64,000 nucleotides of DNA from Macrostomum lignano (GCA_002269645.1 NIVC01000696.1:372001-436000), one strand, 5' to 3'. Positions 6,975-42,251 are shown, counted from the stretch's first letter. Numbers and translations are program-made. Notes: a model not told the origin generated them from the sequence alone.

Positions 6975-7203
6975 CGCGACACCTTCCAGATAAGCACAAG
7001 CGCTGCAACCTGACTGTCCTATAAAACTTTGAAGTTGCTTCTGATGCAGTGAATTGCTTCTAAGTCTATTCTAAAATATAAATCAGCATTCTCCCCTGAA
7101 GATAAGGAGTGCGCTAAACTCGCAGCCCGTTATTTCAATTGCATGCTTTTGCAGTTAACTTTCAAAACTAAATCGCCTTTTACATCTATCTGTCTATTTA
7201 CAA

Positions 7204-7667
<464 letters not shown>

Positions 7668-8258
7668 ATCTATCGATCGATTAGGCTTAGAGCAAATACT
7701 TGTGTACTCATCCTATTACTTTATTTCTTAGAACCTTTAAGAAGACGAGCAGATAGAGTGGACGCGGAGTACAGTGGCTCAGAAGCCAGTTTTTTACCAT
7801 ATTTTCGAATTTCAGCAGGAATAAACGATGAGTTTAAAAGTAGATGAAGGTCAAACTCAGTGCTGGTGCAGGGGTGCTCACTGGCTGCTCAAGTACGAGC
7901 TAGAAGCAGACAGAGTGACGAGTGCGCAACGCAGTTAACTACGTAATCGTAGTTTGTTGACATTTTTGATGGTTTTGCTGTTTTCCTGTCTGCGGCTCCG
8001 AAATTCATACTCAGCTCTAGCATGGTTGAGTTGTGCATGCAAAACCGTGAATAAATAGAATAGTGTTATTTTTTGGTGAGATCGTGGCTGGGCAGGCGCT
8101 TCTCTCAGCAGAGTGGAGCAGTGGTTTCAGTTCATAGACGACTCTGAGGTGTTTCCAATATCAGGTATAATTGAATAAGCGTGAGTAAAATTCCAAACTC
8201 TAAAAATATTTATACTCGTCCAATTATCTCGTCAAACGCACTACTGGAAATTACTGGC

Positions 8259-9528
8259 GCTGTAGCTGGGCCCTCGCTTACAGAGCCCTCAGGCTCGTCA
8301 CAGGGTGACTGACCGGAGCTGTATCTGGGCCCTCGCTTACAGAGCCCTCGGGCTCGTCACAGGGTGACTGACCGGAGCTGTAGCTGGGCCCTCGCTTGCA
8401 GAGCCCTCGGGCTCGTCACAGGGTGACTGACCGGAGCTGTAGCTGGGCCCTCGCTTACAGAGCCCTCGGGCTCGTCACAGGGTGACTGACCGGAGCTGTA
8501 GCTGGGCCCTCGCTTACAGAGCCCTCGGGCTCGTCACAGGGTGACTGACCGGAGCTGTAGCTGGGCCCTCGCTTACAGAGCCCTCGGGCTCGTCACAGGG
8601 TGACTGACCGGAGCTGTAGCTGGGCCCTCGCTTACAGAGCCCTCGGGCTCGTCACAGGGTGACTGACCGGAGCTGTAGCTGGGCCCTCGCTTACAGAGCC
8701 CTCGGGCTCGTCACAGGGTGACTGACCGGAGCTGTAGCTGGGCCCTCGCTTGCAGAGCCCTCGGGCTCGTCACAGGGTGACTTACCGGAGCTGTAGCTGG
8801 GCCCTCGCTTACAGAGCCCTCGGGCTCGTCACAGGGTGACTGACCGGAGCTGTAGCTGGGCCCTCGCTTACAGAGCCCTCGGGCTCGTCACAGGGTGACT
8901 GACCGGAGCTGTAGCTGGGCCCTCGCTTACAGAGCCCTCGGGCTCGTCACAGGGTGACTGACCGGAGCTGTAGCTGGGCCCTCGCTTACAGAGCCCTCGG
9001 GCTCGTCACAGGGTGACTGACCGGAGCTGTAGCTGGGCCCTCGCTTACAGAGCCCTCGGGCTCGTCACAGGGTGACTGACCGGAGCTGTAGCTGGGCCCT
9101 CGCTTACAGAGCCCTCGGGCTCGTCACAGGGTGACTGACCGGAGCTGTAGCTGGGCCCTCGCTTGCAGAGCCCTCGGGCTCGTCACAGGGTGACTGACCG
9201 GAGCTGTAGCTGGGCCCTCGCTTACAGAGCCCTCGGGCTCGTCACAGGGTGACTGACCGGAGCTGTAGCTGGGCCCTCGCTTACAGAGCCCTCGGGCTCG
9301 TCACAGGGTGACTGACCGGAGCTGTAGCTGGGCCCTCGCTTACAGAGCCCTCGGGCTCGTCACAGGGTGACTGACCGGAGCTGTAGCTGGGCCCTCGCTT
9401 ACAGAGCCCTCGGGCTCGTCACAGGGTGACTTACCGGAGCTGTAGCTGGGCCCTCGCTTGCAGAGCCCTCGGGCTCGTCACAGGGTGACTTACCGGAGCT
9501 GTAGCTGGGCCCTCGCTTGCAGAGGCCT
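8259..9528. repeat. 59-bp tandem repeat, ~21.5 highly homogeneous copies
   Basis: Unit gctgtagctgggccctcgcttacagagccctcgggctcgtcacagggtgactgaccgga starts at 8259, 8318 and so on. Confidence 0.98.
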
Positions 9529-9873
9529 CAGTCCTGGTGCAGGAAGACTTTCGGTAGCTGCAGCTGCATGGACAGAGCCCTCAGTCCCCGGAACTCCCAA
9601 GCGTGAAAGACTGCACAAAGCAGCTCTGAGATGGGACCGCATTAATAAATGGTTCGCATTCGCACGCAACCTGAGTGCCTCTCTAGGAATTTTTGCTTGC
9701 GAAAATCAAATCATGATTTATTGATGCAACAGCATGAGAACAGTTTTATTTCTCACCCGCTACTTTGGCAGTCGCAGCTGGAAATGATTGCCGCTTCTCG
9801 CGTGCAGGCGGAAATGATTTATTAATGTATAATATAATTTGCCCCCCCCCCCCTGATAACAAGTAAAGCAGGT

Positions 9874-12137: not shown

Positions 12138-13291
12138 TCAGAGCGCACTGACAGAGCCAGAGTGGCTGTTTCCCTGCCTCCTGGAGAGCCCATTGGAGTT
12201 GACGCCGCCCACTCGCGCTAGCGGCGACCCGGCCTCCGATGAGACTTCGTCGGCAAACGCGGCCACAACTCCGGCCGGGGGGCGGAAGGCGACGCAGGCC
12301 TCCTTCTCCCAGGGGTCGAGCAGGTTCGCCCGCTCCGCTGCTGACGAGGAGACCACAACGGCCGGGGCAGACGCGGAGGCGGCATCGTCAACTACGTCAC
12401 CGTCATCAGCGTCTGCCGCCTCCGCGCCGACACCACCGCGGGTGCTTAGGTAGAAGAACTCCAACACCTCAACCACGAAGGCAGCAGTGAGGCCGATGCA
12501 CAAAGAGCAGAGACCGCCGATCCGACTGAGCAAGATATTGACATCTAACGTCAACTTCTCTTTTTTCATCGTCATGTCCCAATTTCGGCGCCTAATTTTG
12601 ATGTAAGTGTAAGCGTTCTGCTGCGACAGGTACTTGGTGTACTCGCTGGACGCGATGTCGGATATGTTTCTCTTCACTCTATAGAAGAATTCGGCATCGT
12701 TCACCTGTGATTGCCGGTACAGATTTCCCCATTTGTAGTGCTCCGCTAGAGCGGCCAGCTTGCTAGACGATGGCACCCACTTAGCAATTGACAAAGCGGT
12801 CTCATATGTTGAGTAGGTGCACCTCGGCAGACAGCTGATTGAAAGGTTTCGCTTCAGCAGCTCCATATCCTCCAGGTAGTTTCCGGCGCATTGTAAGCGG
12901 CTATTGACTTGTCTCAGATAGTCCAGCCTAGTGTTGCCGTCGCCACCGCCAGTAACGTCGGTGCAGTACGGAACTTTGTTGTCAGGCATCCGCAGCACTG
13001 GCCATAAAGTTGACTGACAGCCGCAATTGTCTATAAAGTGCTTTTGAAGTTTGGCATTCACGCACTGGTGATAGTTTCCGGTGTACTTGCGCTCCAGGTG
13101 GCGCACATGTGGCTGGTTGTCCCGGCAGGCCCGCTTCGGCGTGGCCAATTTGCTCCAGCTGGTGGTGCCGTAGCTGATTTCGTTCATTCGGCCTGGCTCA
13201 ACGTTGAAGCCGCTCTGGGCGAAGTCGGGGATTGTGTTTCTCTCGTGAATCGTCACTTTGACGCCTTCACCGCGTGTTAGCACATCGTATA
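12138..13291 (-). pseudogene. 3' half of an intronless DEG/ENaC (ASIC/FaNaC-like) channel gene interrupted by the LTR element
   Basis: GVKVTIHE...P....GFNVEPG motif, Cys-rich ectodomain (CGCQ, CLPRC), and TM2 LLSRIGGLCSLCIGLTAAFVVEVLEFF. Joins in frame to 23996..24674 when the element and one TSD copy are removed. Confidence 0.9.
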
Positions 13292-13295
13292 GGAA

Positions 13296-14371
13296 TGATG
13301 TGTTCCTTATTACCAGTCCTCAACTGTAATCAAGGAACAATCACTTCTAGCTCTGTAGCTAGGCAACCCAGTAATCAAATGAAGGTATTCAATTACCTTT
13401 GAGTCCTTAAATGAGAGCTCTCGTAATAATCCTCGTCCGTAGTATCGCGATCAGTAACTTTCCTGTCCTTCAGGAAGTTTAGGCACCTGGTAACAGTTGA
13501 TCTGGTCCGTTATCTCCTTTGTCCTCTTGACTTCTTGCCGGCCGGTATCTGTAGTTCGGACCAATCGGAAGCTTCCAAATTAACAATGGGGATCCCTGCG
13601 CCAAACTGCGGTTTAATATAAGCCTACTCCTTCTAGTAGTGCCTCTATGCACTCTAGGTATGGCTCCGGAAACCACTGATAGTCTTCTAAGATCTATCAG
13701 GGGCAGTCCTTCTGGAGACTGCAACCAGTGGAGTCTAAACAGACTCAAGAGTCTCAGCAGACTCAAATAAACTCAAGTCTCAATAGACTTGAGCGAGACG
13801 TCTCAACCAACGGGCGCAAATGAGTAAGGCTTACCGCAAGAACTCGTCCACGACGCGAGTTTCTTCAGGAAGGCTTCACTAGAGCTTCCTCTTCGGAGCT
13901 TCTCTCTCTTGGAGATTTTCTGGCTCCGGGTCCGTTCCGGACCACTTGTATTTATAGGCGTTCAGACCTCTCTCGAGGTCGTACATCACTGTCTTCGCAA
14001 ATGTCAAAGGGTCACGATTCGGTGGCTGTCAAGCATGACAGGGTAGAAAGTTGCGCAACTAGTCTATTGTAAAAGCGCATGATTGGTTACCGTAGCTGGT
14101 AGACTTTGATTGGTTCATCCGGGTGCAACCCGAGTGCAAACAAAATGATGACTTGAAGGTGGGGTTTGAATTGACAGTTGTTGGTCGCACGTGATTGGGT
14201 GATTTCTAAAATTAGCATGCTCAAGGTCTCTCTCTTTCTATTGGTTAGTCAGAATATACTTATAATTCAAAGCATACCTTTATTCATGCTCTTCAACTTA
14301 CTACTGAATAAAATGTGTGAGTAGTACGTTAACACTTTTATGTCTTCTTACGGGAGGTAGAACACTCTACA
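13296..14371 (-). repeat. 3' LTR (1076 bp)
   Basis: Matches 22920-23995 at offset 9624. By eye, one mismatch (A14274 vs G23898). Confidence 0.97.
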
Positions 14372-14385
14372 AAATCTCCCATGTT
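14372..14385 (-). other. Candidate short polypurine tract
   Basis: Minus strand reads catgggagattt directly before the 3' LTR start TGTAGAG; short and imperfect. Confidence 0.4.
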
Positions 14386-14589
14386 TACAAAAAAACTCGT
14401 CCGAGTTTTAAAGAGAGGATTGAAACGCATAAAAAGTTCAAGCATGTCTTTATAATAATCATTTGTCATAAGTGTTACAGGTATTTAGTAATGGGTAGTT
14501 AAGAGCGTTGGTTATAAAAGTTATTTAAAGGTAAGTATACGCATGCAAATAAAATGTTTTTGGTTACAGTATTGACATGTGCGCCAAGA

Positions 14590-14802
14590 CTAACAATAGG
14601 CGCACTGCCGCAAACTTCTTCTACCTATCGGGCAATTCTGCCAGAGCTGAATATAATGTGAGTCGCTTGAACATTGTCCGCATATGCGATGTCTGTTTTC
14701 ACAAATAATTGGTGGCTTGACAGCCAAGTCATCAGTTAAACATATTGGGCATTCGTAGAGTTGCTGTAGTTGGGGCGCCTGTTTGGACAGTGCGTTGCCC
14801 AT
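14590..14802 (-). CDS. Element-internal 70-aa ORF: predicted N-myristoylated RING-finger (C3HC4-like) protein
   Basis: MGNALS start (Gly2, Ser6); CPIC-x(11)-CENRHRICGQC-x(12)-CPIGR, with the last ligand Cys replaced by Gly; strong Kozak context acaATGg. Lies between pol and the 3' LTR on the element's sense strand. Confidence 0.7.
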   Translation of the reverse strand: MGNALSKQAPQLQQLYECPICLTDDLAVKPPIICENRHRICGQCSSDSHYIQLWQNCPIGRRSLRQCAYC

Positions 14803-14913
14803 TGTCGTCGTCGCTTGAAGTTTGAAGTCGCTCAGATTAGTCGCCTCTTACGACAAGCTTGCGAAGCTGTAGAGCTATTCTGACCCGGTCTCTACACGGG
14901 TTGTTTTCGCAAC

Positions 14914-17900
14914 TTAACGAGGTCGCAGATTGTAGCCATGTTGCTGGTTCTCGGTTGATGTTTGTGTCTCCTCGTGTTTTGTTGCGATGTGGCGGTTCGC
15001 CGAACGCGTGCGATCAGCGTTGTCTAGTGACGGTAAAAACGTTGTCGTGTCAGTGTTGATCTTCTTTAGTCGATGAATGTGCACGTAGAATTGGTGCTGA
15101 TGAGGATCTTGCACATTGGCCAGGCGTGCCGTTGTCGGTGACGTTAGTTGGACCACTCGATATGGTCCTTTGTACTTCTGTGCGTGTTTGTGCGTCTGTT
15201 GCGGCGGATAGTGCAGGTAGACGATGTCGCCGGCTGTCAGAGTTGTCGATCTCGTGTCGGTGCCGGTGGTTAGAGCCACCTGATTGTCGATGTTGTGCTT
15301 GGCTACTTTCCATGCGAGGTGTAGTTGCGTGACGAACTTTTGAATGGACGTCGGGACTTCCACATATTGCGATGGTAGTAGTTGCTGTGCCAATAGGTTT
15401 GGCGGCTGGAAGTCTCGCCCAAACATTAGAAAGAATGGCGTATTGTCCGTTGATCGATGAATAGCGCTGTTGTAGGCCATTGTTACTGCTTGCAGATAGA
15501 TGATCCAGTCGTCCGGTTGTTGATGCGCGAAATGTGTAATCATCTCGTGTAGGTTGCGGTGAAACCTTTCAACCATGTTCGCCTTCGGATTGTAGGTCGA
15601 TGTGTAGATCTGCGTGATGTTGAGGATCTTCACCACTTGCTGAAAGAGTTGAGACGTAAACTGCGATCCATTGTCCGATGTAGGTTCTTTGGCGTACCGT
15701 ACTTGCAGATGATGTCGTTGAAGAAACCCATTGCCACTGTCTGAGCTGTGATGTCCGGTATTGGTATGGCAATAGCAAACTTTGAGAAAATGTCCAAGGC
15801 TGTTAGGATGTAGGTGTAGGCTATGCCATGGAGACAGCTCGGTGGCAGCGGTCCGGTGATGTCGATGCTGAGACAGTCCATAGTTGTTGACTTTGGTATC
15901 GATTGTAGCTGTGGTTTTTGTCGTCGTCCTGTCTTTGATGCTGCGCATGAGTGGCAGTTGTTGCAATACTGCTTGATGTCGCCATGCATGCTTGGCCAAA
16001 AGTAGTATTGCTCCACTCTTGCAATGGTTTTGGCTGCCGACAGGTGTCCAGCGAGTGGGTTGTCGTGCAGCTCGTTGAGAATTGCCTGCCTAAACGAATA
16101 TGGCATGTAGATTTTAGGTTTGTTGTCACTCATCCAGTAGAGTCGTGACTTGTTGATTGTTAAATGTTGTCGCTGCTTGCGCAGGAATTTTCGTTCCACG
16201 GGGCTGAGCTTGATGTCCTTGTCGTTGTTTTTAACTGCTATGTAGAAGTTGTCGTGTTCCGTCTCATCCACCAATTCCTTGATGTTAGGGATTGGATGAA
16301 TGGCGTTGACTTCGTAGGCTCTTGACAGGGCGTCCGCGGCCTTGTTAGTAATTCCTGGTTTGTAGACGAGCTTGTAGTTGTAGTCCTGGATCTTGAGTGT
16401 CATCCTGATGAGTCGGTTGTTTGTTTGTCCTTTTGTAGTTACGACGTAGGTCAGCGGTGCATGATCTGTGCGTACTATCGTCTGTAATGGAGATCCATAG
16501 ATGTAGTAGTGAAACTGTCGTAGGGCGAACAGAACTCCTAGTAGTTCTCGTTCCGTAGCTGACCATTTTGTCTCATTCGGTTTAAGTGCTCGACTGACGT
16601 AGGCTATAGGTCGTTCCTTTTTGTCTTCAGTTTCCTGTAGTAGGACTGCTCCGAGTCCCGTTCCTGAGGCGTCTGTCTCGATGATGAAGGGTTTGTCGAA
16701 GTCCGGATGCTGTAGCAGTGCGTCTGATGTCAGCTGTCGTTTGATTTCGTCAAAACTTTCTTGTTGCTTTTGTGTCCAATTCTCCTGCTTCCATTTGTCG
16801 AACTTGAGCAGGTCGTACAGCGGCTTTGCTGTCTTCGCGAAGTTGGGTAAGAACTTTCGGAAGTATTGCGCAAGTCCAAGAAATGATTGGACCTTCGTTA
16901 TGCTAGTTGGCGTAGGAAACTTTTTCACTTTATCCACGTTGTCTGGGTCCGGTGAAATTCCTTTGGCTGTCACCTGATGTCCCAGGTAACGCACGTTGTC
17001 TCGGAAGAATTTGCATTTAGTTGGTTGTAGCTTAAGTCCTTGTCGTTGATAAGCGCGAGGGCCTTCTCCGTCGCTTCATAGAGTCGTTCGAAGTCTTCTC
17101 CGTAGGCCAAGATGTCGTCAACATAGTGCAACAGGTTCGTGCATCCTGCAAGCATGTATGCTGTTAGTCGGCTCATCGTTGCTGGGCTGTTGCTGAGTCC
17201 CATCGGCGATCGATTGTACTCGTATACTTGTCCATTGTAGGTTTTGAAAGCCGTGTACTGTCGTGACTCTTTCTCGATTTCAATTTGCCAAAATCCATGA
17301 CGTAGGTCGAACACTGTGAACAATTTTGCCGTGTTGAGCTTTGCTAGTAGTTCGGAGATCTTCGGTAGGCTTTGCTGATCCGTCGGTATGTACTTGTTCA
17401 GTAGTCTGAAGTCACATACGAGTCGTCTTTCGTTAGTCTCCTTCTTTTGTACCAGAGACGGTGAGGAGTAGCTGAAATGGCTTTGCTGATGATGCCGTGT
17501 TTAGCATTTTGTCGATAATTCATCGAAGTGTGTTGCAGATGCTTGGCGATCGGGTACGGTTTGCACTGAATTGGTTCCGTGTGCGGCAGAAGTTTGATTT
17601 CCTGTTTGATGTCCTTGGCTCGTCCGATGTCGTAGTCATGGTGGCAGAAAGCGTCGTTGTACTTCCACAACAGCTGTCGAACTTTCCTCTTTTGCTGTTC
17701 CGTAATCGGGCTGTCATCCAAATTGATCTTCTTTTGAAATTCTTCCTCTGTTAGTCGTGGAGTCGCTTGCTCAATCAGCATAACCGATGCTTGGGTGTTG
17801 AGATGACCGATGCACATTCCTTGTCGTAGATGAACCGTTTCTGTGTTCGGGTTGAATATTTGTACTGGCAGCTGTTTATCTTTTGCAACCAGTACTAGTG

Positions 17901-18636
17901 CCGTAGGCATCATAATTTGGTGTTTAGCCGTGACTCTTCTGTTTGGGTCGAATATCATTGCTTCCTCCGTTGCGTTAGTTGCCTTTGCCTTTATCCAGCA
18001 GGCGCTCTCCGGTTGGATGATGACATCTTGTTGCAATGTTACTTTTGGTAGTACTCGGATCTGGTTGATCAATGGTTGTTCTACCGAGTCGATCTTGAAC
18101 GTTTGCTTATTGAAGTCGAAGGTCAATGGTAGTCGAAGCTGCTTGAACGTGTCGATGCCAACAATAACGTCCTGGTTTGGGAGTCTGTCGATGACGTACG
18201 TTGGAACTGTCAAGTGTTTATTAGCGATTCTTAAATCAATGTCGGCTTTTCCCAGAATGTTTAGCGAATGTCCTCCTGCTCCTGCAACTGCGATTGTTGC
18301 TGGCCGTAGAGCAAGTCGTAGCTTGTTGCACAGTTGTTTTGATATAACTGTGATGGAGCTGCCGGAATCGAGTAGCGCTCGACATGGTAGATTGTTGATT
18401 ACCACTTGAGCCATGGCTTTGCCAATTTCGGCGTGTAGAGTACATACGTAGTTCTCTGGCCATTTTGGGTCTTGCTGTTCTGCTTGATAGTTGGGTGGTT
18501 GTATTCTTGGTGCCGTTGGTGTTGTCGGAATCGATGGATATAGCCGCGTTGCTAGTGTCGGTTGCCCTTGAACCTCACGATGTGCAGTTTCTGTTAGTTC
18601 TAAACTGTTGTCGCCTTCCGTTGTCGTTCTTTGCAT
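14914..18636 (-). CDS. pol: Pol polyprotein (aspartic protease, RT, RNase H, integrase), with frame breaks in this sequence
   Basis: ALLDSGSSITVI (protease); RRLVCDFRLLN, DLRHGFWQI and YVDD (RT); ETDAS, ERELL and RTDH (RNase H); HHCC, IDITGPL, SDNGSQF and VERF (integrase); C-terminal YNLRPR. Spread over ORF-track segments 17398..18945, 16970..17323, 15630..16994 and 14914..15999. Confidence 0.95.
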
Positions 18637-21600
18637 TATGGCATTAACTGTCTTCTTAGCTTTGGACAAGTTTGACTGAAGCACCGTACGATCGACGAAA
18701 TGATGAAGATTGCCGTGACAATCCACACAATGCAAGCACCGTAGAAGATGAATCCTTGATAGAGACTGCCTCTTCCATTGAGCAGCTCCCAGAAGCTGTT
18801 TGTCCAAAATGATTTGATGGCGCTGTCCATTGAAACAAGGACGGGAAATCTTCCTGTCCCGGTTCCTTTGTCCTTTCTTGTGAACAGCTGGTGAATCATC
18901 TTGCGTTGGGTGATGAACGCTTGCAAGAAGTCGTTGATCGTCCATCCTGGTGTTATCTCGTCAAGTTGGATATCGGCGAATGGCGTATACTTCGTTCTGT
19001 TGAATCGGATTTTCAAATCCTCCATGTCGTAGTTTTCGTCGACGATTACTTCCGGTTCTGTGATGTTTGCTGTCGTTCCAGTTGTTTTGATGACGTGTAG
19101 TGCATTGTCCAGTTGATAATAGTTTGCTGCCGTGGTGCAAGGTCTCGGTATTGCGGTGCCAACGATGATGTTGTGTACCGTGTCCAAGAATCCCTGAATT
19201 CGTTTTCCTTCGTAGAACGCTTCAATCCTTGGCTTGTCGTAGCAGGTTGTTGACGTGTTCGACGGCAAGATGTTAAAGTGCTGTATCGGCGTGCACTTGT
19301 ATATCAACAGATGCTCGTATATTGGAACTGCCAAAACGTTCGTCATTCCGGTGATTTTACGAAAAGTCATCGTAGGGTTGACATAGTAGTTTTGTCTGGC
19401 ATAATTTAAGTTGATTGCGTGCATTTTGCAAGTTAGCTGGACCAGTGTTCGATGCAAGTGGTTTAACTGGTTGTGTAGATTGTGATCCAAAGCCGTTATC
19501 TTTGCTGACAGTAGTCGGTTTGACACCAGTTTGGGACGTTCGATGTCTCGTCGTCGTCTGTTCTGTTGTTCCTGCTGTTGATACGTTCCGTTGATGATCG
19601 CCAGAAAGGTTTGTTTGTCGTCTTCTTTTACGTAGACTGGTATCTCTTGTTCCGAGATGAATAGTGTCTTGTCTGTATCCTTGCATTTCAGTTTTTGCTC
19701 GACTGGTTTCTTTTGAAATGTCAGTGCCAAGTCTCCTGACTTTGCCAAAAACGTGTTTGACAGTAGACCTCCTTCAACTGTGTGATACTTTTGAAGCTTG
19801 CAGTCAATTTCCGGCTCAACTTCCCACGCGAAGAAGTATTGTCGTGACTTAGATGGTTCTTCATATCGTGAGTCGCCTCTGCGTATTATTTGCCATCGAT
19901 AGTCTTGATGATATGTTGGACTCAACGGTAAGCTGTATAGTTCCTCATTCCGCAGTATCGGCGTTGGACACCATCCTTTGCTGTATCGGCAGTCACTTAA
20001 TTGCAGTTGTAGCGACTCCATTTTTTCAAAAGGATTGTGGTAGAATGGAATATTCCTGATTAGGTAACTGTTTCGTGTCATGTAGTTAGTCCATGCTTCC
20101 GAAAAGTGTACATATCGTCCGTTTGCTGAGTTCTTCGTTCGGTAAAGTTGTGCCTCCCCCACTTTCTCATCCGGTTCTAGCTGACCATCCTTTGAGAACA
20201 GTGTTTGGTTCCATTGTAGACATTCAGCGTGCGACACATGTAGTTCGTGTTGCCAAAATCGAATTCTGTTCCATTGTCCTCGCCAAACTTTTTCCACTAG
20301 GTGCTTGTCTCTAAAGCACACTATTCCGAGTTGTCGATGCTTCTTGATGTTAGCTTTGTAGAGATCAATTGTGATCTTCTTTGGCTTCGTCTGATTTGTC
20401 TTGAAGTAGCTGCATTTGATGTCGGTTGGTATCTTGTAGATCATCGGTTGGATATGCGCATCCGTTGGACATATCATTGGTTTCTCCATTGCTGTTGCTT
20501 TGGTGACTACTGCCGTCAGTAGTATTATGATGATCCAGAATATCCAGAGTCGCCATTTTCTGAACGTTGCCGTTGTCTTTGCTGGCATTGGCTGCGGCTG
20601 CCATTCGTTATCTTCTACGTCCGCATCGTATTCTTCCTCTTGTTCCATTGGCGTTTCCGAGCGCAAGGCATCCGATTCGTTCCGCTGCTTGTCGTCTTCA
20701 TCGTTTTCTTCCTTGCTTTCTTCCGATGTTGTAGTTGTGTCACTCCATTGTCTGCGGTACCTCACTTCGGCCTTGTAGTCGACCGTTTGGATGTAGGCTT
20801 CACCATTTCGTTTATAGCGGATCTCGTAGCATTGATCGCTGTCGGAGCTTAGATTTCTTTCTTCCATTCCTTTGTGCCTTCCGTCTTCATGTTCTTTGTC
20901 GGCGGCTTGGTTGTCATCAGCGTCATTCTGCATCTCATAATCGTGATCGCTGCTTTCTTCTTGCTGTTCTTCTTCCATCTCCGCATTTCCGTCGTTGCTT
21001 CTTTCGTTGTCATCCTTCGTTGCCGGTTCCTTGTCGTTGCCTTTGTTTGTTTCTTCTTTTCTTTCATTGATGTCGCTTGGCAATGTTTTTTCTGTGCTCA
21101 CTTCTGCCTTTTCTTCTTCGCTGTCAATGTTAGTTTCTTTCATTTCGACCATGCTGATGTTTTTTGTCTTTTCGCTGCTCTCCGCATCGAGCCAGTCGAT
21201 TTCATTGATAGTGAAGTCCATTTCTAAGTCGTCTATCGTGAAGACTTGCTGCTCTTGCTGTTCGCTTTCCGGTGTGTACGTGATGGCGTTTGCATATCGT
21301 TGCATCGCTTGCGTTGGTTGCTTGGGCATGTATCTGGTGTTTCGCGGTCTGTAGCCATTGTTTCCGAAGCGTTTCGTGTTTTGCTGCTGCCAATTTTGAT
21401 GTTGTTGCCATGGTTTTTGCGGCTTCCTTCTGTTGAATGGCTGTCGCTGCATGTCATTTCTTGTTGACCGATGAGGACAATGTATTTGGTAGTGTCCTTC
21501 TCGTCCGCAGTAATAGCATCTGGCTTGGGCTCGTTCATTTCGTCTTTTTTGTTCGGCGATAACGGCTGTTTGATGTTGCATCAATTTGTTTAGTTGCTGT

Positions 21601-22223
21601 GTCAGTTTCTGCACTTCTGTGTTGCCGGTTGTCATTAGTGGAGCGCTTGCTTCCCACTGCATTCCGCACCGTAAAAGGTCTTCCTCGGTTTCAATGTTTT
21701 CGCGTAGAAGTCTATCTCGGAGTGACGGCTGTGCATTGTTTATTACGTGCAGAATCAGATTTTGTTCGCGATCCATCAATCGCTGTCGCTCTCTAGCGGC
21801 TAATTCTGCCGCACCCAGAGGTGGTTGGTCTGCAGCTGGCAGTGTTGGCTGATGCAGTGCCTTAATTATCTGACGGATGTCGTCCACAAAGGTCAGGAAG
21901 GATTCGGTTGGCTGCATCCTTCTGTTATGCAACTTGTGCAGTAGCACTGATCTGTTTGTGCCACAGCGGTTGAAATGTGCGCGCAGTTGAATGATTAATG
22001 CTGGGTAGTTTTGCTGTGTTGCCGCGTCTAGTTTACCATAAATCTCTCGTGCAGTGCCTTGGAGGAGTGGTGGCAACAGTTGCGCTTTTTCTGGATTTTG
22101 TAGGTTGTATTCCCTACATACCAGGTCAAAATGATCAACAAAGGTGTTAAAGTCTTTTTCCATAGAAAAGGTGCCAACTGTCTCTTTGATATCTCTGTGC
22201 ACCGTTGGATTGCGCCGCGCCAT
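18636..22223 (-). CDS. 1195-aa Gag-Env fusion ORF: Gypsy Gag, CCHC, acidic linker, internal signal anchor, class III (gB-like) fusion glycoprotein, TM
   Basis: Gag N-terminus FVDHFDLVC...KAQLLPPLLQGTAREIY; CYYCGREGHYQIHC at 21477-21518; hydrophobic RKWRLWIFWIIIILLTAVVTKA at ~20495-20560; RRRR furin site at 19548-19559; gB-like motifs; six N-glycosylation sequons; C-terminal TM at ~18690-18765. No stop codon across the ORF. Confidence 0.9.
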   Translation of the reverse strand: MARRNPTVHRDIKETVGTFSMEKDFNTFVDHFDLVCREYNLQNPEKAQLLPPLLQGTAREIYGKLDAATQQNYPALIIQLRAHFNRCGTNRSVLLHKLHNRRMQPTESFLTFVDDIRQIIKALHQPTLPAADQPPLGAAELAARERQRLMDREQNLILHVINNAQPSLRDRLLRENIETEEDLLRCGMQWEASAPLMTTGNTEVQKLTQQLNKLMQHQTAVIAEQKRRNERAQARCYYCGREGHYQIHCPHRSTRNDMQRQPFNRRKPQKPWQQHQNWQQQNTKRFGNNGYRPRNTRYMPKQPTQAMQRYANAITYTPESEQQEQQVFTIDDLEMDFTINEIDWLDAESSEKTKNISMVEMKETNIDSEEEKAEVSTEKTLPSDINERKEETNKGNDKEPATKDDNERSNDGNAEMEEEQQEESSDHDYEMQNDADDNQAADKEHEDGRHKGMEERNLSSDSDQCYEIRYKRNGEAYIQTVDYKAEVRYRRQWSDTTTTSEESKEENDEDDKQRNESDALRSETPMEQEEEYDADVEDNEWQPQPMPAKTTATFRKWRLWIFWIIIILLTAVVTKATAMEKPMICPTDAHIQPMIYKIPTDIKCSYFKTNQTKPKKITIDLYKANIKKHRQLGIVCFRDKHLVEKVWRGQWNRIRFWQHELHVSHAECLQWNQTLFSKDGQLEPDEKVGEAQLYRTKNSANGRYVHFSEAWTNYMTRNSYLIRNIPFYHNPFEKMESLQLQLSDCRYSKGWCPTPILRNEELYSLPLSPTYHQDYRWQIIRRGDSRYEEPSKSRQYFFAWEVEPEIDCKLQKYHTVEGGLLSNTFLAKSGDLALTFQKKPVEQKLKCKDTDKTLFISEQEIPVYVKEDDKQTFLAIINGTYQQQEQQNRRRRDIERPKLVSNRLLSAKITALDHNLHNQLNHLHRTLVQLTCKMHAINLNYARQNYYVNPTMTFRKITGMTNVLAVPIYEHLLIYKCTPIQHFNILPSNTSTTCYDKPRIEAFYEGKRIQGFLDTVHNIIVGTAIPRPCTTAANYYQLDNALHVIKTTGTTANITEPEVIVDENYDMEDLKIRFNRTKYTPFADIQLDEITPGWTINDFLQAFITQRKMIHQLFTRKDKGTGTGRFPVLVSMDSAIKSFWTNSFWELLNGRGSLYQGFIFYGACIVWIVTAIFIISSIVRCFSQTCPKLRRQLMP

Positions 22224-22899
22224 GTTGTTGATGGGATAGAACGGTAGCTCTAGGTCTGGGTCGATTTGTAATGGATCTTCCAGTGTGGTGTTTCTTTCGA
22301 AATAAACTTCGGTTGTAACTGATTGTCTCGCGGCGCTTTTGACACCTCAATTTGTTATGTCTGACCTTGAACGGAATTCGGCTTTTGGCTGCTTTTTCTG
22401 ACCTCTTATTCGCTGGCTGATTTTCGCACTTATGCGGCGTCCCGCAAAGTGTATCTTTAAAGTGCTTGAAGTGCAGCTGCTTCTTGCTTTTTTCAAAGGC
22501 CTTTCTTGTCTTCGTGACGTGCCTTGTCACGTTTTATCAAATTTCGGTTTGTTTTAGCTTTCGTCAAGTGTTTTTAATTTCGGTTTTGTTTTAATGTGTA
22601 TTGATTATTTTTCGGTTTGTTTTCAGTGTACCGGACGTTGTTTTCGGTTTTGTTTAAGGTTTACTCTTGCTCGAGCTCGTTAAAAACAAAAATTTAACAC
22701 GCGTGCTCAAACGTTACTCAAAATTGACAGGTACTCAAGCCTGTATATCTAAACTTTTACTCGAGTTTCAAATCGTACAAAAATCGAAAAGTGTCGGAAA
22801 GTGTTACCTTTAACACGTGCGCGCAAAATTAATGAAGTCGCTCTTTCGTCACTTTACAATAGCTTGGCCAGGCTATTGCTCAAAAGTTTGAGTAGTGCC

Positions 22900-22917
22900 G
22901 AGAGGGCGAGATCACCA
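22900..22917 (-). other. Primer-binding site TGGTGATCTCGCCCTCTC, 2 nt inside the 5' LTR
   Basis: Begins TGG (complement of tRNA CCA) after an AT spacer following the LTR end ...CACATCA. Confidence 0.75.
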
Positions 22918-22919
22918 AT

Positions 22920-23995
22920 TGATGTGTTCCTTATTACCAGTCCTCAACTGTAATCAAGGAACAATCACTTCTAGCTCTGTAGCTAGGCAACCCAGTAATC
23001 AAATGAAGGTATTCAATTACCTTTGAGTCCTTAAATGAGAGCTCTCGTAATAATCCTCGTCCGTAGTATCGCGATCAGTAACTTTCCTGTCCTTCAGGAA
23101 GTTTAGGCACCTGGTAACAGTTGATCTGGTCCGTTATCTCCTTTGTCCTCTTGACTTCTTGCCGGCCGGTATCTGTAGTTCGGACCAATCGGAAGCTTCC
23201 AAATTAACAATGGGGATCCCTGCGCCAAACTGCGGTTTAATATAAGCCTACTCCTTCTAGTAGTGCCTCTATGCACTCTAGGTATGGCTCCGGAAACCAC
23301 TGATAGTCTTCTAAGATCTATCAGGGGCAGTCCTTCTGGAGACTGCAACCAGTGGAGTCTAAACAGACTCAAGAGTCTCAGCAGACTCAAATAAACTCAA
23401 GTCTCAATAGACTTGAGCGAGACGTCTCAACCAACGGGCGCAAATGAGTAAGGCTTACCGCAAGAACTCGTCCACGACGCGAGTTTCTTCAGGAAGGCTT
23501 CACTAGAGCTTCCTCTTCGGAGCTTCTCTCTCTTGGAGATTTTCTGGCTCCGGGTCCGTTCCGGACCACTTGTATTTATAGGCGTTCAGACCTCTCTCGA
23601 GGTCGTACATCACTGTCTTCGCAAATGTCAAAGGGTCACGATTCGGTGGCTGTCAAGCATGACAGGGTAGAAAGTTGCGCAACTAGTCTATTGTAAAAGC
23701 GCATGATTGGTTACCGTAGCTGGTAGACTTTGATTGGTTCATCCGGGTGCAACCCGAGTGCAAACAAAATGATGACTTGAAGGTGGGGTTTGAATTGACA
23801 GTTGTTGGTCGCACGTGATTGGGTGATTTCTAAAATTAGCATGCTCAAGGTCTCTCTCTTTCTATTGGTTAGTCAGAATATACTTATAATTCAAAGCGTA
23901 CCTTTATTCATGCTCTTCAACTTACTACTGAATAAAATGTGTGAGTAGTACGTTAACACTTTTATGTCTTCTTACGGGAGGTAGAACACTCTACA
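22920..23995 (-). repeat. 5' LTR (1076 bp)
   Basis: Minus strand TGTAGAG...CACATCA; near-identical to 13296-14371. Confidence 0.97.
23573..23870 (-). promoter_or_regulatory. LTR U3 promoter: TATAAATA box with four upstream CCAAT boxes
   Basis: Plus-strand tatttata at 23573-23580 (13949-13956 in the 3' LTR), and four attgg motifs at ~23705, ~23732, ~23817 and ~23864. Confidence 0.6.
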
Positions 23996-24674
23996 GGAAG
24001 CTGCGACTCATCTGGGGCAGCTTTTCCATCGGCACAAGCGACATGATAACGATAATAGATTCGAACTCCCGACTGAATGTGACATTGTCTGCGTCCACTG
24101 TAAAACAGTTGAAGAACTCACCGTAGGAGAAAAGGCGTACCGAGACCTGGATGCCTGGGATCTCGCAGTTGTCGGCAATGTACTGCTGGCCGCCCATAAC
24201 CACCACACAGAAGAAGAGGCTGCTGCGATTGTGACCGATCATTATTGTCTCGTTAAACGGCAACTGCTGATAGTAGGTTTCGATATTGTCGTATGCGTAC
24301 ATCAGTTTCAAGTTTTCCAGATTATTAGCTAGTGCCAGCCCAGTGACGTCCTTGAGCATCTTTTGGAATCGCAGGGGACTCATGACAGCGCCTGAGTCCC
24401 ACAAGTTCTGTGCCTCGTAGCTGAACGGGCTGTGCGCGCACAGAGTGAACGAAGGAAACTCGGGCTTAACGTCGAACGCAGTGGACGTGTGCCAGGCAGT
24501 GTCGTAGTTGAGAAAATCCTTCACTAGGAAGGCGGACACGATCACCAGCACCAGCGTCATCACAACAACAAACGATAGCCAGAGTATCTTTATAAACGGC
24601 GACCGGGCCTTTAGGATTTTCTGCACGCCCCTAATTGAGGAGCCTTCGCAGAAAAGTCTCCAACGGCTGGCCAT
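23996..24674 (-). pseudogene. 5' half of the interrupted DEG/ENaC gene; now stops at an in-frame TAG just inside the LTR
   Basis: MASRWRLFCEGSSIRG (pre-TM1 F...S.HG-like motif) and TM1 ILWLSFVVVMTLVLVIVSAFLV. Reconstructed junction reads MSRSFL-YDVLTRGEGVKV; the restored ORF is 1833 nt (610 aa). Confidence 0.9.
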
Positions 24675-29581: not shown

Positions 29582-32500
29582 CTACTGCTTCTGCGGTCTC
29601 TGCTTCTCGATTGACGCCGCCTGGTCGGCGCCCGCTCCTGAATTGGTCAATTTGGTGCTGCAAAACTTTTCTACGTCATTGAGATTGCTCAGAAAATAAA
29701 TTAAACTCAAGTGAAGATTAGCTAACTTCGCTTTTTTCAAGTCGCAGGTGAATCTTCTGCCGCTTTCTATGCCTAAATCACAGATAAAGGGAGAAGGGAC
29801 TAAAGAAAGAACTTGATGAAGTGGGTGAAAATTTTCTGATTGAAACCTGACGGACCACTTACCGTCAGCTCCAGCTTCCGCCGTTTGCTGTTGCCTTTTG
29901 TTGCGGCTGGCGTCGTGTCCCCCGCCGCCATTGTCGCAGCTGCCGCCGCGGCCGCTGTCATCGTTGGAGCCGTCTGTGGACCGGAGGCTGGCAAAGTCTG
30001 GCGGAGGCGGGCTTTCCCGCTGCTGCTTGTAGAAGAGGCTGCGGCTCTGCTGGGTTCAGTGTGACAAGACGGGCATTGCGTGGGACCGACTGCATAGGGT
30101 TTATGGTTTCAATGACTGCCGTTAAACAAATAGGCTGGAATATTGGATAAATTTAACTCGCAGGCGCTCTGTTCTACTCATAGTATGCATTCGCAATATC
30201 GAATTAAAAATCAAAAAATTACTCATACTTCTGCAACAACGGCTAGATAAGAATTGCTTTTTGGTCAACTTAAAAAACTTTCCCTAAACTTCGCCATGAC
30301 ACTTTATTTAATCCGCTGCTATTTTGTTCCAGCAAATTTAATATGAAAGACATGACAGTCATGACGTTGGCCTAATGAATAATATACAAGTGAATTCAAG
30401 CAGGTAACTTTTCTCCTGACCTGACGGTGCGCAGCCTGTCTGCCTGTCATCGGGACGCTGGCCTCATCGTCCTCAAATTCTTGGCGGGCTGTCGGGCCTC
30501 GGCTGAACAGAGGACGCCGGGTTTGGCTCCTGCCCGATGCAGCGCCTGCGGCTGAGGGAATGCGAATTGAAGTGCCGGTTTGACATCCCCACTGTTTTTT
30601 GTTGATAAAAATAATATAAATATAATAACTGACTACACCTGCCCTAATGGCCAGATGTGCAACCGACAGCTCAGCCGCCGCTATTGCGTGGCGTCACCTG
30701 AAGGCTGCGTACGGCTGTTCAGTCCAAGGACTGGGGGGGGGGTCGCCACACACACCCTCAATTACCCCAGCTAATGCTGGCACCCATTTTACAGCTGGGT
30801 GAACTGAAGCAATGCAGAGTTAAGTGTCTTGCTCAAGGACACAAATTGTTCCGAGTGGGTCGAGAATCGAACCTCCGACATTTCAGTCGCGAGTTATACG
30901 GGTTTACTTCAGACACTACTAAAAGTAGCATTTAATTATTCATGCACAATACTTTATTTGAGCAATGCAGTCAGAATCAATAGGCGAACAAAGATCTGGA
31001 CAAGCCGGCGTTAGGAAGAATGCTGTATTTTGACATGGCCATTACGCTTTGTGCTGTGGAGTTGTAATTTGGCATGGCCGTTATGCTCTGTGCTGTGGAG
31101 TTGTAATTTGGCATGGCCGTTATGCTCTGTGCTGTGGAGTTGTAATTTGGCATGGCCGTTATGCTCTGTGCTGTGGAGTTGTAATTTGGCATGGCCGTTA
31201 TGCTCTGTGCTGTGGAGTTGTAATTTGGCATGGCCGTTATGCTCTGTGCTGTGGAGTTGTAATTTGGCATGGCCGTTATGCTCTGTGCTGTGGAGTTGTA
31301 ATTTCGCATGGCCGTTATGCTCTGTGCTGTGGAGTTGTAATTTGGCATGGCCGTTATGCTCTGTGCTGTGGAGTTGTAATTTGGCATGGCCGTTATGCTC
31401 TGTGCTGTGGAGTTGTAATTTCGCATGGCCGTTATGCTCTGTGCTGTGGAGTTGTAATTTGGCATGGCCGTTATGCTCTGTGCTGTGGAGTTGTAATTTC
31501 GCATGGCCGTTATGCTCTGTGCTGTGGAGTTGTAATTTCGCATGGCCGTTTTGCTCTGTCCTATAGCTGTACTAAAAGGCTAAAGATAAGAACGATCACT
31601 GCCAATTTTCCAGCTTATTTGCCTACCTATCCGCGTAGAAGCCGAGAATTTAAGCTTCATCTTTTCACTAATTAGAACAGATACGCCAATTTCAGTCCCA
31701 ATGCCCTGCTCCATGCTAATCTCTTCATTAACCTGGAAGGGCATTAGCGTTAGTGAAGCACCCGGATAAGCGCCATGGGTGCATTCCGCTGCTTAATCCC
31801 GCGCCCATGTCTGTTTGCCGCTAATTCTGATTGCTAGCTGCAGGAGACGAGCAGGTCGAAAGCAGCTCTCCCGGTGCCCAGATAATCCAGTCATACGAAA
31901 CAGAGTTTAATCAGTAAGTCGCCCCTAGCACCGGAAGGCATCCTCGATATGAGCGCTTTCATGGAGACTGAATATCATTTTGAAAAAGTCATTCCCAGCC
32001 CTGTAATTCCTGCGATTACTGGCTCTAAAACCTGATGGACGGATTGCTGGGCAAACTGGAGTCTGAAGTACACTATATTTTTCAGATTCCCGCAGAATGT
32101 TTAAAATTTACAGATCTCTGAAGCTATTTAGTTACATTTAAGATGCATATTTAAGATACATATAAATCCACTTTCCTCTTAATTCAAATACAGTTGTGGC
32201 AAATCTGGACAGCTGGAATCTGAACTCACCAATGCAGCGGCGGCGGCACGAGATGACCAGCAAGCCCGTGACGAGAACCAGCAGGAAGGCTGCAGTCGCG
32301 AACACGAGTCCCGCGATCACAATAAAGCCATCGGTGCCCGCTGTTCCTGGGCCACTGACGTCCCCGTCAGAGTGAAGCACTCGCTCGGTTCGAACGAATT
32401 CTACATCGAGCGACTGAACATCTTCGAGCGGAGGCTGACCGAGATCTCGCACCATCAGAGTCAGCCGAATTGGCTGGGCGGCGAGTTCTGGCGCCAACGG

Positions 32501-37307: not shown

Positions 37308-38481
37308 GAGTTTCACTGCAGCGTAGGGGAGCGGGAGCACCTCGATTTTGGCTTCCTCAATCCAGGTATTCCCCTGCTAATTAGGTGTTGAGGCTGAACA
37401 AGGTACCGGATGGAGGGAGAAAAACTGTATTTCTGTTCAATACAGTTAATAGTCAGCCTGAGTTTCATTCATTGCATCGAGTACTCAGACAGTTTGGAGT
37501 AAGTCAATATCAGATTTGCGATTTTAGTGGTAAAGTTAGGTTAAAGAAATAAAGAAAAACAATAAAGAAATAAAGAGCGCATGGAAATACGAGTACAACG
37601 ACACGCAGCGAATTAAGAACAGACTATTCTCAGTTAATTAATTTCATTTTTAAATTCATTAATGGCAGCAACAGCGAACCAAATAAGAATCTAATTTTCA
37701 TCTATTAGTTGGCGCGGGTCTGCAGCCCCAGCAAGAAGTCTATTAGCGCAGCTTCACAGAGAAAGACGGAGAGATGAAGAGCTGCAAGTAGAGGAGAATA
37801 TGAGTGGGGGCGGATGGGTTAGTTGGGGGCAAGCTGGGCTACGGGATGAGGGAAGCCCACTTCCTCAGCCGCAGAGGATCTGAGATGAGGGAGGCTGGCT
37901 GAATCAAACAATGCCGGCCTGAATTGAAAGTCTGCGAGTAGAAGAAAGGAGAGAGAGGAGACTCAGAGGGATTCCTGCAAAGAGAGAAAAGTTGGGCAAA
38001 AAGTACGATCGTCAGCGTCGAAGCCCGTAGAGGGCTGGCTGCAAGTCTGCGGGCTGGGTTCAACAGACCTGGCTGAGCAGCTCGAACCCAGTCCGGATTT
38101 ATGCATCCAGCTCAGCGTCGAATATCTGAAGTGGCTGGATTGTGGGCAGAATTTCTTCCTGCTTCCGTGCTCAGCAGATTCTATTCAAGCGCCAGCATCC
38201 TTGTGGGACCTCCATCGTGGAGAAGTGTTTTCTTTGGTGGGTGCTTGAGAACAAGAGCTCTCTTTGTGGACTCTCCCCGGTCTTCTTCACTAGCAGCATT
38301 TACAACTGCTTTAAAAAAGACTGATAATACATACAAAAATAGGAGAGCTAGGCAAACAGTTTCTGTAAGGTAAATGGGAGTAGCAGAGACTGTGGCTTGC
38401 GCTGATTGGCCAGTCAAGCGTTTGCCAGGTTTCCTGTGGGTAGTCGATTCGTATGGAATAGAAGTCAATTCGTAAGAATAT

Positions 38482-39012
38482 GTCAGTTCAACCCTAATTA
38501 GTTAGGGCCCGGTCAGTTCAACCCTAATTAGTTAGGGCCCGGTCAGTTCAACCCTAATTAGTTAGGGCCCGGTCAGTTCAACCCTAATTAGTTAGGGCCC
38601 GGTCAGTTCAACCCTAATTAGTTAGGGCCCGGTCAGTTCAACCCTAATTAGTTAGGGCCCGGTCAGTTCAACCCTAATTAGTTAGGGCCCGGTCAGTTCA
38701 ACCCTAATTAGTTAGGGCCCGGTCAGTTCAACCCTAATTAGTTAGGGCCCGGTCAGTTCAACCCTAATTAGTTAGGGCCCGGTCAGTTCAACCCTAATTA
38801 GTTAGGGCCCGGTCAGTTCAACCCTAATTAACTAAGGCCCCATTCAGTTCAACCCTAATTAACTAAGGCCCCGTTCAGTTCAACACAAATCCAGGCCCGG
38901 TCAGTTCAACACAAATCCAGGCCCAGTCAGTTCAACACAAATCCAGGCCTGGTCAGTTCAACACAAATCCAGGCCCAGTCAGTTCAACACAAATCAAGGG
39001 CCCGGTCAGTTC
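38482..39012. repeat. 30-bp tandem repeat (11 exact copies) decaying into ~25-bp variants
   Basis: Unit gtcagttcaaccctaattagttagggcccg runs 38482-38811, followed by two variants and then ~5 gtcagttcaacacaaatccaggccc units. Confidence 0.97.
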
Positions 39013-39918
39013 ATCTTGTGGCTTTGCTTACCTGAAAATGACGCAAGCCTAGTAACCCCAGAAACATATCCGCTGCCTCAAGTAATCAGGTAGTTGTCAG
39101 GTAAAGCCTTCTAAATAGCGTTTTTAGCGCTTATGAGAATCTATAGATAATAGCGCATACTACTCATTTAAGAATACAAATACTACCGATTTTCTCATTA
39201 CATGGATACAAACTTGCACTGGACGATAGTAGTTCATCCACTGTCCAGAGTAGCATCTACTACGGCTCTGGACTTTCCCTTTAGCCAATAGAAGTGTTTA
39301 CCGAGCTCTGGCCAATTTTGCATGTGCGAACAGACATGCAGGCTCATGTCTACATCTCCCATTTTAATCTCTCACGCCACATCCTTGCGGTTCGGGCTTT
39401 GGGGTTTTGCATCGCCCCGCAGATCAAACAGGCTGGTGGCGCAGACTGGATAACAGGCTCAGTGCAGGATGATGGAGTGCTCAGAAATTTATTCCACTTT
39501 GCCTTATCTGCAGCTGGAACCGCGGATGCTCACTTCAACCTCTTATAAATCTTTTGAAACTTTATTTTGAGCATTTTTGGCAGAGTAGGTAGGTTCTCTG
39601 AAAGTTTAAGCAACTAAAACCGAATCGTGCTCACCAGTGCTCAGCAGCAGCGTCTGTGTAGATTAAATTAAAAATTCAGAAAATCAGGTATTATTCAATT
39701 TCAAATGCATCATGGACTGTGTTGGGATTTTCAAAGAAAAGCCTGCTACTACCAAACTTTAATAGGTGACAGATTTACACTGAAAATCGACTGTTGTTGG
39801 CGACGTGATGAGCTAGTTAGTTTTATCCCCAGTCTGAAGCCTGAAGCAGCCAATCAGCGAAGGCGATGGGTAAGTGAGGGGGTTGAGGCCGCTGCACTCT
39901 CCAGTTAATAAAAAGCTC

Positions 39919-41409
39919 AGACACTTCATATCTCAGACACTTCATATCTCCGACACTTCATATCTCAGACACTTTATATCACCCCCCGACAATTCATATC
40001 TCAAACACTTCATATCTCAGACACTTAATATCTCAAACACTTCATATCTCCGACACTTCATATCTCTGACACTTCATATCTCCGACACTTCATATCTCAG
40101 ACACTTCATATCTCCGACACTTCATATATCAGACTCTTCATATCTCCGACACTTCATATCTCAGACACTTCATATCTCCGACACTTCATATCTCCGACAC
40201 TTCATATCTCAGACACTTCATATCTCCGACACTTCGTATCTCCCCCGACACTTCATATCTCAGACACTTCATATCTCCGACACTTCATATCTCCAACACT
40301 TCATATCTCCCCGACACTTCATATCTCAGACACTTCATATCTCCGACACTTCATATCTCAAACACTTCATATCTCCGACACTTCATATCTCAGACACTTC
40401 ATATCTCCGACACTTCATATCACCGACACTTCATATCTCAGACACTTCATATCTCCGACACTTTATATCTCGCCCCGAAAATTCATATCTCAAACACTTC
40501 ATATATCCGATACTTCATATCTCCGACACTTCATATCTCCGACACTTCATATCTCAGACACTTCATATCTCAAACACTTCATATCTCAGACACTTCATAT
40601 CTCCGAAACTTCACATCTCAGACACTTCATATCTCAAACACTTCATATCTCCGACACTTCATATCACCGACACTTCATATCTCCGACACTTCATATCTCA
40701 GACACTTCATATCTCCGACACTTCATATCTCCGACACTTCATATCTCAAACACTTCATATCTCCGACACTTCATATCTCAGACACTTCATATCTCCCCCG
40801 ACACTTCATATCTCCGACACTTCATATCTCCGACACTTCATATCTCCGACACTTCATATCTCCGACACTTCATATCTCAGACACTTCATATCTCCCCCGA
40901 CACTTCATATCTCCGACACTTCATATCTCCGACACTTCATATCTCAGACACTTCATATCTCCCCGACACTTCATATCTCCGACACTTCGTATCTCAGACA
41001 CTTCATATCTCCGACACTTCGTATCTCCCCCGACACTTCATATCTCAGACACTTCATATCTCCGACACTTCATATCTCCGACACTTCATATCTCCCCGAC
41101 ACTTCATATCTCCGACACTTCGTATCTCCCCCGACACTTCATATCTCAGACACTTCATATCTCAAACACTTCATATCTCCGACACTTCATATCTCCCCGA
41201 CACTTCATATCTCCGACACTTCATATCTCTCCCGACGCTCCATATCTCAGACACTTCATATCTCCGACGCTCCATATCTCAGACACTTCATATCTCCCCC
41301 GACACTTCATATCTCAGACACTTCATATCTCCGACACTTCATATCTCAGACACTTCATATCTCAAACACTTCATATCTCCGACACCTCATATCTCCGACA
41401 CTTCATATC
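39919..41409. repeat. 16-bp minisatellite acacttcatatctc(c/a)g, ~90 degenerate copies
   Basis: Direct reading; explains the spurious 513-aa ORF 39874..41415. Confidence 0.97.
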
Positions 41410-42251
41410 GGATAAACTGAGATAGCTAGGCCACTTTGTTTATCAGAACGGGTTGCAACCAGCGTATGCTTTCTATGCCTGGATTAGCTTCGACTGTTAT
41501 GGCACAAAAATACCTCTACGATGCATGATAAAAATACAGTTTACCGTTTTGCTGTCTCGCGAAATTGAGAGGCATCAACCTGTTTTCTTTAACCTACCTG
41601 CGACTGCTGCGCAGCAATGGCACAGAAATGAGGCAGTGGCTGCGCTAGAGACCTTGTGTTCTGTGCTCACGCATCTCGAGAAATCCCCCCTGCTGAGAGG
41701 CTAGCGGGCTTGAAGGCCTTGGTTGGAGCTTTTGGGTTTTCCTAATCGCCGAGAGTCTTAGAATTTTTTGCATAAACTGCGCCTGCGTCTGCCCCAAGCA
41801 TTCTTCACCCGGTTCAGTGAGCTTTGAGAGTTCGAAGTGCCTGTCGTGGTGTTATCTAATGAGCATCTCCAATGCTTAACAGACAATGCTAGAGAGCGTT
41901 TGAGATTTGCCCACTCAAAATGAAGCGGGTCTTGCAGCTTCTATGCATTCTTCGCACTAATCTACTGTATTTTAATAGCAGCCGTCTCTTATTTGCAACC
42001 TTTTTATCTGGTTTTCAAAAGAGAAAGGATGCAAGGAACACCAAGCACGGATAGAATATTTCCATCAATTATTGTAACACAAACAGACAAAAAATGTTGA
42101 ACATGTGCTTCAGCGTTACCTTTGCAAAAGTGCCAATGGTTGAATCCTTAAGGAGAGATTCTCTTTTTCTCTATGGAGATTGTGACCCACCAAGAAAGAT
42201 TTGGCAAGAGATAATAAATCACTGTTATTAGGCAGTAGTTCTGGTTCTCTG

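Follow-up and report, generated by a model that had tools for sequence, protein, structure and literature searches.

A 64,000-nucleotide stretch of the Macrostomum lignano genome (hereafter the window) contains a retroelement at positions 13296-23995, with every module on the minus strand. The question raised by this locus is whether the element represents a new enveloped retroelement system, as the initial annotation had proposed, and which of its unusual features are shared by other copies of its family. Taking the locus as a whole, we consider it probable that it is a young copy, locally damaged, of a Ty3/gypsy element of GAG-ENV-POL order, an 'ancient errantivirus' with a gB-type envelope, which encodes an ER-threaded polyprotein accompanied by accessory RING proteins that work as E3 ubiquitin ligases or adaptors. 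Enveloped elements of this order have been described before, and a tandem cassette of RING genes is apparently what is new.

A recent insertion within a DEG/ENaC channel gene

The two LTRs of 1,076 bp differ by one mismatch and are bordered by the duplication GGAA (Table 1), so that the earlier description of modules on one strand between near-identical LTRs with a target-site duplication was correct. The element carries end features of Ty3/gypsy elements, namely TG...CA LTR ends, a 4-bp target-site duplication and a putative tRNA primer site. No tRNA that could serve as the primer was found in the 64-kb window. Troyka elements were considered and set aside, as the 3-bp duplication and CG ends given for them in the text of PMC12440569 do not fit the 4-bp duplication and TG...CA ends of the window.

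The insertion splits the coding sequence of a seemingly intronless host gene of the DEG/ENaC family, the two halves of which, put together at the empty site, form one reading frame of about 610 codons. The empty-site joint 13290-23995 is present in contigs of three out of four public runs, so the insertion is either polymorphic or placed in one of several DEG/ENaC gene copies. The element is real and its insertion is recent.

Table 1. Features of the element and its insertion site, in window coordinates.
Feature	Position	Strand	Basis
Host DEG/ENaC (ASC) channel gene, 5' part	23996..24674	-	PF00858, E 2e-13; free of stops
Target-site duplication GGAA (4 bp), 5' side	23996..23999	.	sequence
5' LTR, 1,076 bp	22920..23995	-	one mismatch to 3' LTR; TG...CA ends (minus strand)
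Primer-binding site, PBS-like TGG, 12 bases	22906..22917	-	follows 5' LTR
Gag region, presumed capsid and one CCHC knuckle (21518-21477)	21477..22223	-	sequence similarity, motif
Linker, basic then acidic, low complexity	20562..21476	-	33% D/E over aa 330-545
Internal hydrophobic segment, likely signal anchor before env	20484..20561	-	hydropathy; role predicted
Class III (herpes gB-type) fusion glycoprotein, predicted	18639..20489	-	Pfam, AlphaFold2 and Foldseek
pol with PR, RT, RNase H and IN, split into four frame pieces in the window copy	14914..18636	-	ORFs, Pfam
Conserved non-coding block behind the pol stop, holding a candidate splice acceptor and two small stretches able to form hairpins	14840..14901	-	motif comparison
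70-aa Cys-rich ORF starting with MG, remnant of a double-RING protein	14590..14802	-	comparison with other copies
3' LTR, 1,076 bp	13296..14371	-	pairwise comparison with 5' LTR
Target-site duplication GGAA (4 bp), 3' side	13292..13295	.	sequence
Host DEG/ENaC (ASC) channel gene, 3' part	12138..13291	-	PF00858, E 3e-29

env and RING genes occur together throughout a multi-copy family

By searching the genome with the different modules, we found at least 40 matches to env at 93-100% identity (best 40 of 91 candidates), at least 41 to gag, at least 40 to the 3' region of the element and at least 42 to the LTR (from the best 40 of 667 candidates), as well as 108 matches to the RING segment at 36-100% identity. 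These copy numbers are minimum figures, and the comparison of full-length copies relied solely on match coordinates and 4.85-kb loci. A RING ORF lies 3.8-4.8 kb 3' of env, on the same strand, in 37 of the 39 other env copies, and the two copies without it are located less than 2 kb from a contig end. Even a subfamily whose env is just 63-64% identical still has the RING ORF in place. The initial annotation had named a nested insertion or an assembly chimera as the reading to adopt should other copies lack the glycoprotein or the RING segment. With both kept in 37 of 39 copies, env followed by RING, the copies are collinear and these two readings are ruled out.

As in errantiviruses, the family consists of many near-identical copies with continuous ORFs, the window copy itself being broken. 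A pol piece named as M. lignano (P0057) is 96% identical to the pol of the window. On four contigs of the G000 assembly (C2121, C1130, C87 and C272), diverged copies and RING paralogues are clustered together; these clusters could be insertion nests or piRNA-cluster-like regions.

The family encodes a single-frame Gag-Env-Pol polyprotein

In ORF1 (22223-18636, 1,195 aa), a CCHC knuckle is followed by an acidic linker and a hydrophobic segment, and then by a glycoprotein that bears a furin-like site and another membrane segment. ORF1 thereby holds both the presumed capsid and the glycoprotein, in agreement with the idea of a joint polyprotein in an enveloped, virus-like Ty3/gypsy element. The Gag region resembles the N-termini of two other proteins, P0002 (E 3e-89) and P0003 (E 1e-25). 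A Pfam capsid domain was not matched in the window protein, and Retrotrans_gag or Ty3_capsid matches were found in 4 of 17 env relatives; the region presumably includes a capsid. Gag begins with MA and therefore has no N-terminal myristoylation motif. The Pfam domains of pol follow the gypsy-type order Asp_protease_2, RVT_1, RT_RNaseH_2, Integrase_H2C2 and rve, with no Pao peptidase among the matches. Outside the species, pol finds its best match at 39% identity; gypsy integrase-like proteins are among the named matches.

In the window, this coding region is interrupted near 18660 (the env-pol junction), at 17450-17530, at about 17050 (a break read from the ORF list alone) and at about 15680. 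At the junction, the TAA of ORF1 overlaps an ATG (TAATG), and pol had been proposed to be coupled to ORF1 and separately initiated through this overlap. First, pairwise alignment revealed a frame-changing indel near 18660, relative to the window, in 26 of 29 other copies. Second, the env frame reads through into pol in 25 of these 29 copies, while two end as the window does and two pass into the third frame. Third, all 29 copies differ from the window at the 17450-17530 breaks, and all four public runs differ from it near 15680. With such read-through in 25 of 29 copies, the family encodes one single-frame Gag-Env-Pol polyprotein. The TAATG overlap does exist in the window and has a counterpart in the two copies that end alike, but coupling is rejected as a family trait, as is a separately initiated Pol. 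Either assembly errors or real damage may account for the frame breaks of the window.

In 12 of 75 match rows, the frame that spans env stays open for 2,370-2,538 aa. Beyond the nearest copies, an env-like stretch precedes the protease within one protein in 10 of the 17 long env relatives scanned (51 matches overall), among them P0003 from M. lignano, a Gag-Env-Pol of 2,852 aa whose genomic frames stay open for 2,859-2,866 aa.

The envelope protein is predicted to be a class III fusogen

The env region bears a furin-like site at 19559, six N-glycosylation motifs and a C-terminal membrane segment (18764-18672). Its Pfam match, to PF24664 (Monjiviricetes fusion), is weak and below the curated cut-off (E 3e-5), and a sequence search of the PDB with env gave no significant match. 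An AlphaFold2 model built from an alignment of 21 sequences reached a pLDDT of 67.5. The best Foldseek match of this model was HSV-1 gB (E 3e-21, TM 0.47), and all 35 matches listed were herpesvirus gB structures. As modelled, env is a class III fusogen with a herpesvirus gB-like fold. The gB-like ectodomain lies between membrane or signal segments and env between gag and pol, the arrangement of GAG-ENV-POL errantiviruses.

Such elements have been described. In Nematoda, Bryozoa and Platyhelminthes, the text of Chary and Hayashi (eLife 2026, PMC13524379), following Sacco et al. 2022, reports Ty3/gypsy 'ancient errantiviruses' of GAG-ENV-POL order whose env is of the gB type, so that the enveloped system as such is not new. 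One of them, Platyhelminthes_Rhabditophora_Mlig_errantivirus_2, is placed there in RT clade S. According to the features listed for it, which were compared in place of protein sequence, it has the same gene order, env class, Ty3/gypsy pol and multi-copy state as the window element, the same ectodomain between two membrane segments, and the same 12-base PBS, env type and size. The LTR-to-LTR distance is similar (9,727 versus 9,624 for the window) and the LTR is 864 long versus 1,076. The words "polyprotein", "fused", "RING", "zinc" and "accessory" are absent from the main text of PMC13524379; the single frame and the RING cassette are thus not discussed in that main text. Non-canonical endogenous retroviruses of nematodes, in which env precedes pol (Sacco et al. 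2022, as cited in PMC13524379), are likewise metaviruses with a captured RNA-virus-type glycoprotein, but their hosts differ. The single-polyprotein LTR design is shared with Atlas virus of Ancylostoma ceylanicum, in which the text of PMC9094657 describes capsid, enzymes and envelope in one polyprotein of 2,828 residues; Atlas virus differs in belonging to Belpaoviridae, in its Gag-Pol-Env order and in its class II fusogen. In the text covered of another report on M. lignano LTR elements (PMC12801592), neither env nor RING nor ORFs are treated.

Double-RING genes that lie after pol and before the 3' LTR

The 70-aa ORF downstream of pol had been taken for a small lipidated zinc-binding protein. 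It is instead a truncated piece of a larger one: its first finger is degenerate at the last ligand, and an in-frame stop lies within the second finger. Ten of 12 stretches, picked mostly for long open frames, encode a protein of 216-222 aa in which two RING-like fingers in tandem are joined to a C-terminal domain; of the remaining two, one encodes 124 aa and one is decayed. The same in-frame stop in the second finger is common to 21 rows of the window's subfamily. Two of the novelties proposed for this locus, TAATG coupling and a small lipidated RING protein, are artefacts of the window copy or of its subfamily.

Judged from its coding sequence, the RING gene is under purifying selection: pN was lower than pS in 13 of 13 gene pairs, which share ancestry and are not independent, and dN/dS ranged from 0.08 to 0.24 in the nine computable pairs. 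The N-terminus is more variable. Among 21 first-position RING starts, 13 begin with MG, six from more distant subfamilies do not and two are broken, and none of nine downstream or lone paralogues starts with MG. The predicted myristoylation motif is confined to the nearer subfamilies.

When a diverged RING member was used as query, extra matches at 23-30% identity appeared directly downstream. Two or three tandem RING paralogues lie between pol and the LTR side in five of seven stretches, four of the seven having been chosen because of downstream matches. The paralogues are 33-205 bases apart and two of the ORFs are truncated; the window copy is without downstream paralogues.

The full-length proteins show a C3HC4-type ligand pattern twice, and their RING database matches are weak. 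All Pfam RING scores were below the curated cut-off, and the best PDB sequence matches, to the E3 RINGs of TRIM31, RNF4 and TRIM25, were weak as well (best E 7.5e-4). Two protein searches restricted to similar lengths, covering 82 and 13 candidates, gave no homologue at E 0.01. Language-model searches returned RING-type viral proteins at 0.84-0.90, as leads only, and a model of the 222-aa protein made without alignment was unusable (pLDDT 39). Our best guess is that these paralogues serve the element as accessory E3 ubiquitin ligases.

The cassette was also sought in more distant relatives. In the distant M. lignano P0003 family, no RING ORF was found within 1.5 kb after pol in two out of two loci. 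A metagenome scan with P0037 gave one 5.4-kb locus with no RING ORF, but with little sequence after pol. Within 5.5 kb of a lone double-RING paralogue (L068:2985-3617), nothing matches the window's element; this paralogue is a remnant or possibly a case of co-option. In the P0003 family, the two near-identical loci L070 and L071 (2/2) carry, on the opposite strand after pol, an 84-aa ORF that includes a cysteine run as well as a hydrophobic stretch and may be low-complexity noise.

Virus-encoded RING proteins include arenavirus Z, which is myristoylated, herpesvirus ICP0 and poxvirus p28. These have single fingers and belong to non-retro viruses, whereas the proteins described here have double fingers. 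Accessory ORFs of LTR elements include Cer1 CERV (PMC10309623), sORF1/sORF2 of the MDG1 group (PMC11952523) and the bdelloid ORF3 types (PMC5408684); unlike the genes of the window's family, none is described in the text of these sources as a RING gene or as a row of paralogues. Among the paper listings searched, which excluded subscription journals and Repbase, none concerned RING genes carried by LTR retrotransposons. The single ORF or the RING genes may already be annotated in the figures or sequence files of PMC13524379 or in Repbase. On sequence comparison, the row of double-RING genes is real, under purifying selection and apparently undescribed; its function is presumptive.

A conserved block and possible splicing upstream of the RING genes

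The core motif of the non-coding block that follows the pol stop was present before the first RING ORF in 10 of 10 sequences across subfamilies. The block is near-invariant though the env of these subfamilies is just about 64% identical. An Rfam search with 14840-14901 gave no match. At the second position of the cassette, CAG immediately precedes the ATG in five of six RING ORFs, versus 214 of 7,500 ATGs in the loci, the five cases stemming from about two lineages; it is absent from both third-position RING ORFs. No splice joint into the cassette was among the joints listed, which come from contigs only and show neither strand nor splicing. The text of PMC8629364 describes M. lignano operons with gaps near 100 bp that are resolved by spliced-leader trans-splicing, which makes the same route possible for the RING ORFs.

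Proposed mechanism and alternative explanations

Under the explanation that we favor, the polyprotein would pass the ER membrane twice, with the glycoprotein in the lumen. Gag would be cytosolic, tethered by an internal signal anchor that replaces a matrix domain, and Pol, located behind the env membrane segment, would also be cytosolic. Signal peptidase, furin and the element's own protease would cut the parts, and particles would bud into the secretory pathway. In a hydropathy scan of six related polyproteins, one membrane segment was found in four and none in two, leaving the two-pass topology unconfirmed outside the family. The RING genes would be expressed from spliced or leader-trans-spliced subgenomic RNAs, and their products, as accessory E3 ubiquitin ligases or adaptors, would counter host restriction. 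Because the window's subfamily reached about 20 copies with the 70-aa remnant only, the RING genes are presumably dispensable in cis.

These elements can be combined into a more specific proposal, which we offer as tentative. A membrane-threaded polyprotein would be accompanied by an operon-like set of two to three diverged double-RING E3s, expressed through alternative or spliced-leader splicing and destroying host silencing or restriction proteins, like lentiviral accessory proteins. One paralogue would later have gained a myristoyl anchor, and truncated subfamilies, that of the window among them, would use complete proteins in trans.

Two other roles for the RING proteins were weighed. In the first, which we regard as unlikely, they would regulate the export, splicing or translation of the element's own RNA, perhaps by binding the hairpin block directly upstream of them, which is conserved in 10 of 10 sequences. 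Their position after pol and before the 3' LTR matches that of the Cer1 ORF forming CERV, which is described in the text of PMC10309623 as a cysteine-loop protein that exports genomic RNA, and a single-ORF element would have to keep unspliced RNA and yet make subgenomic RNAs. However, we saw no sequence link to CERV, the nearest sequence matches being E3-ligase RINGs, and three diverged paralogues would suit several targets better than one own RNA. In the second, unlikely in our view as well, the double-RING protein would be structural: a membrane-targeted, matrix-like budding factor resembling arenavirus Z that compensates for a matrix-less Gag. This would fit the MGxxxS start at 13 of 21 first-position RING starts and the MA start of Gag, and when the 70-aa remnant was the query of a language-model feature search, arenavirus Z ranked fourth with a score of 0.90, which is no more than a lead. 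Yet MG is missing from the six first-position starts of distant subfamilies and from all nine downstream or lone paralogues, the whole protein has 216-222 aa and two fingers, Z is not among the matches listed for the full-length query, and the RING gene is truncated in about 20 young copies that have spread. The RING proteins lack the conserved N-myristoylation and the single small RING of Z-like proteins. Finally, it is very improbable that TAATG stop-start coupling works in a minority of copies and sets the Gag-Env to Pol ratio. The overlap occurs in the window and in two of 29 other copies, but 25 of 29 read through. Two more pass into a third frame at nearly the same place, as would be expected of an error-prone or mutable site; 1-10 other private frame breaks are found in most copies, and distant relatives have a single polyprotein.

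Returning to accessory E3 ligases or adaptors as the preferred reading, transposon-encoded counter-defence in animals is, to our knowledge, poorly documented, and selected RING paralogues in a tractable flatworm would offer a direct route to the host proteins that restrict such elements. The single-frame polyprotein also raises the question of how the amounts of Gag, Env and Pol are set.

Other features of the window

Tandem-repeat arrays with units of 8, 59, 39, 30, 26 and 16 bases occupy 7092-9673, 30907-31679, 38392-41462 and 45593-46564 of the window. Inverted-repeat pairs at 49064-49679 and 61623-62297 resemble small non-autonomous DNA transposons.
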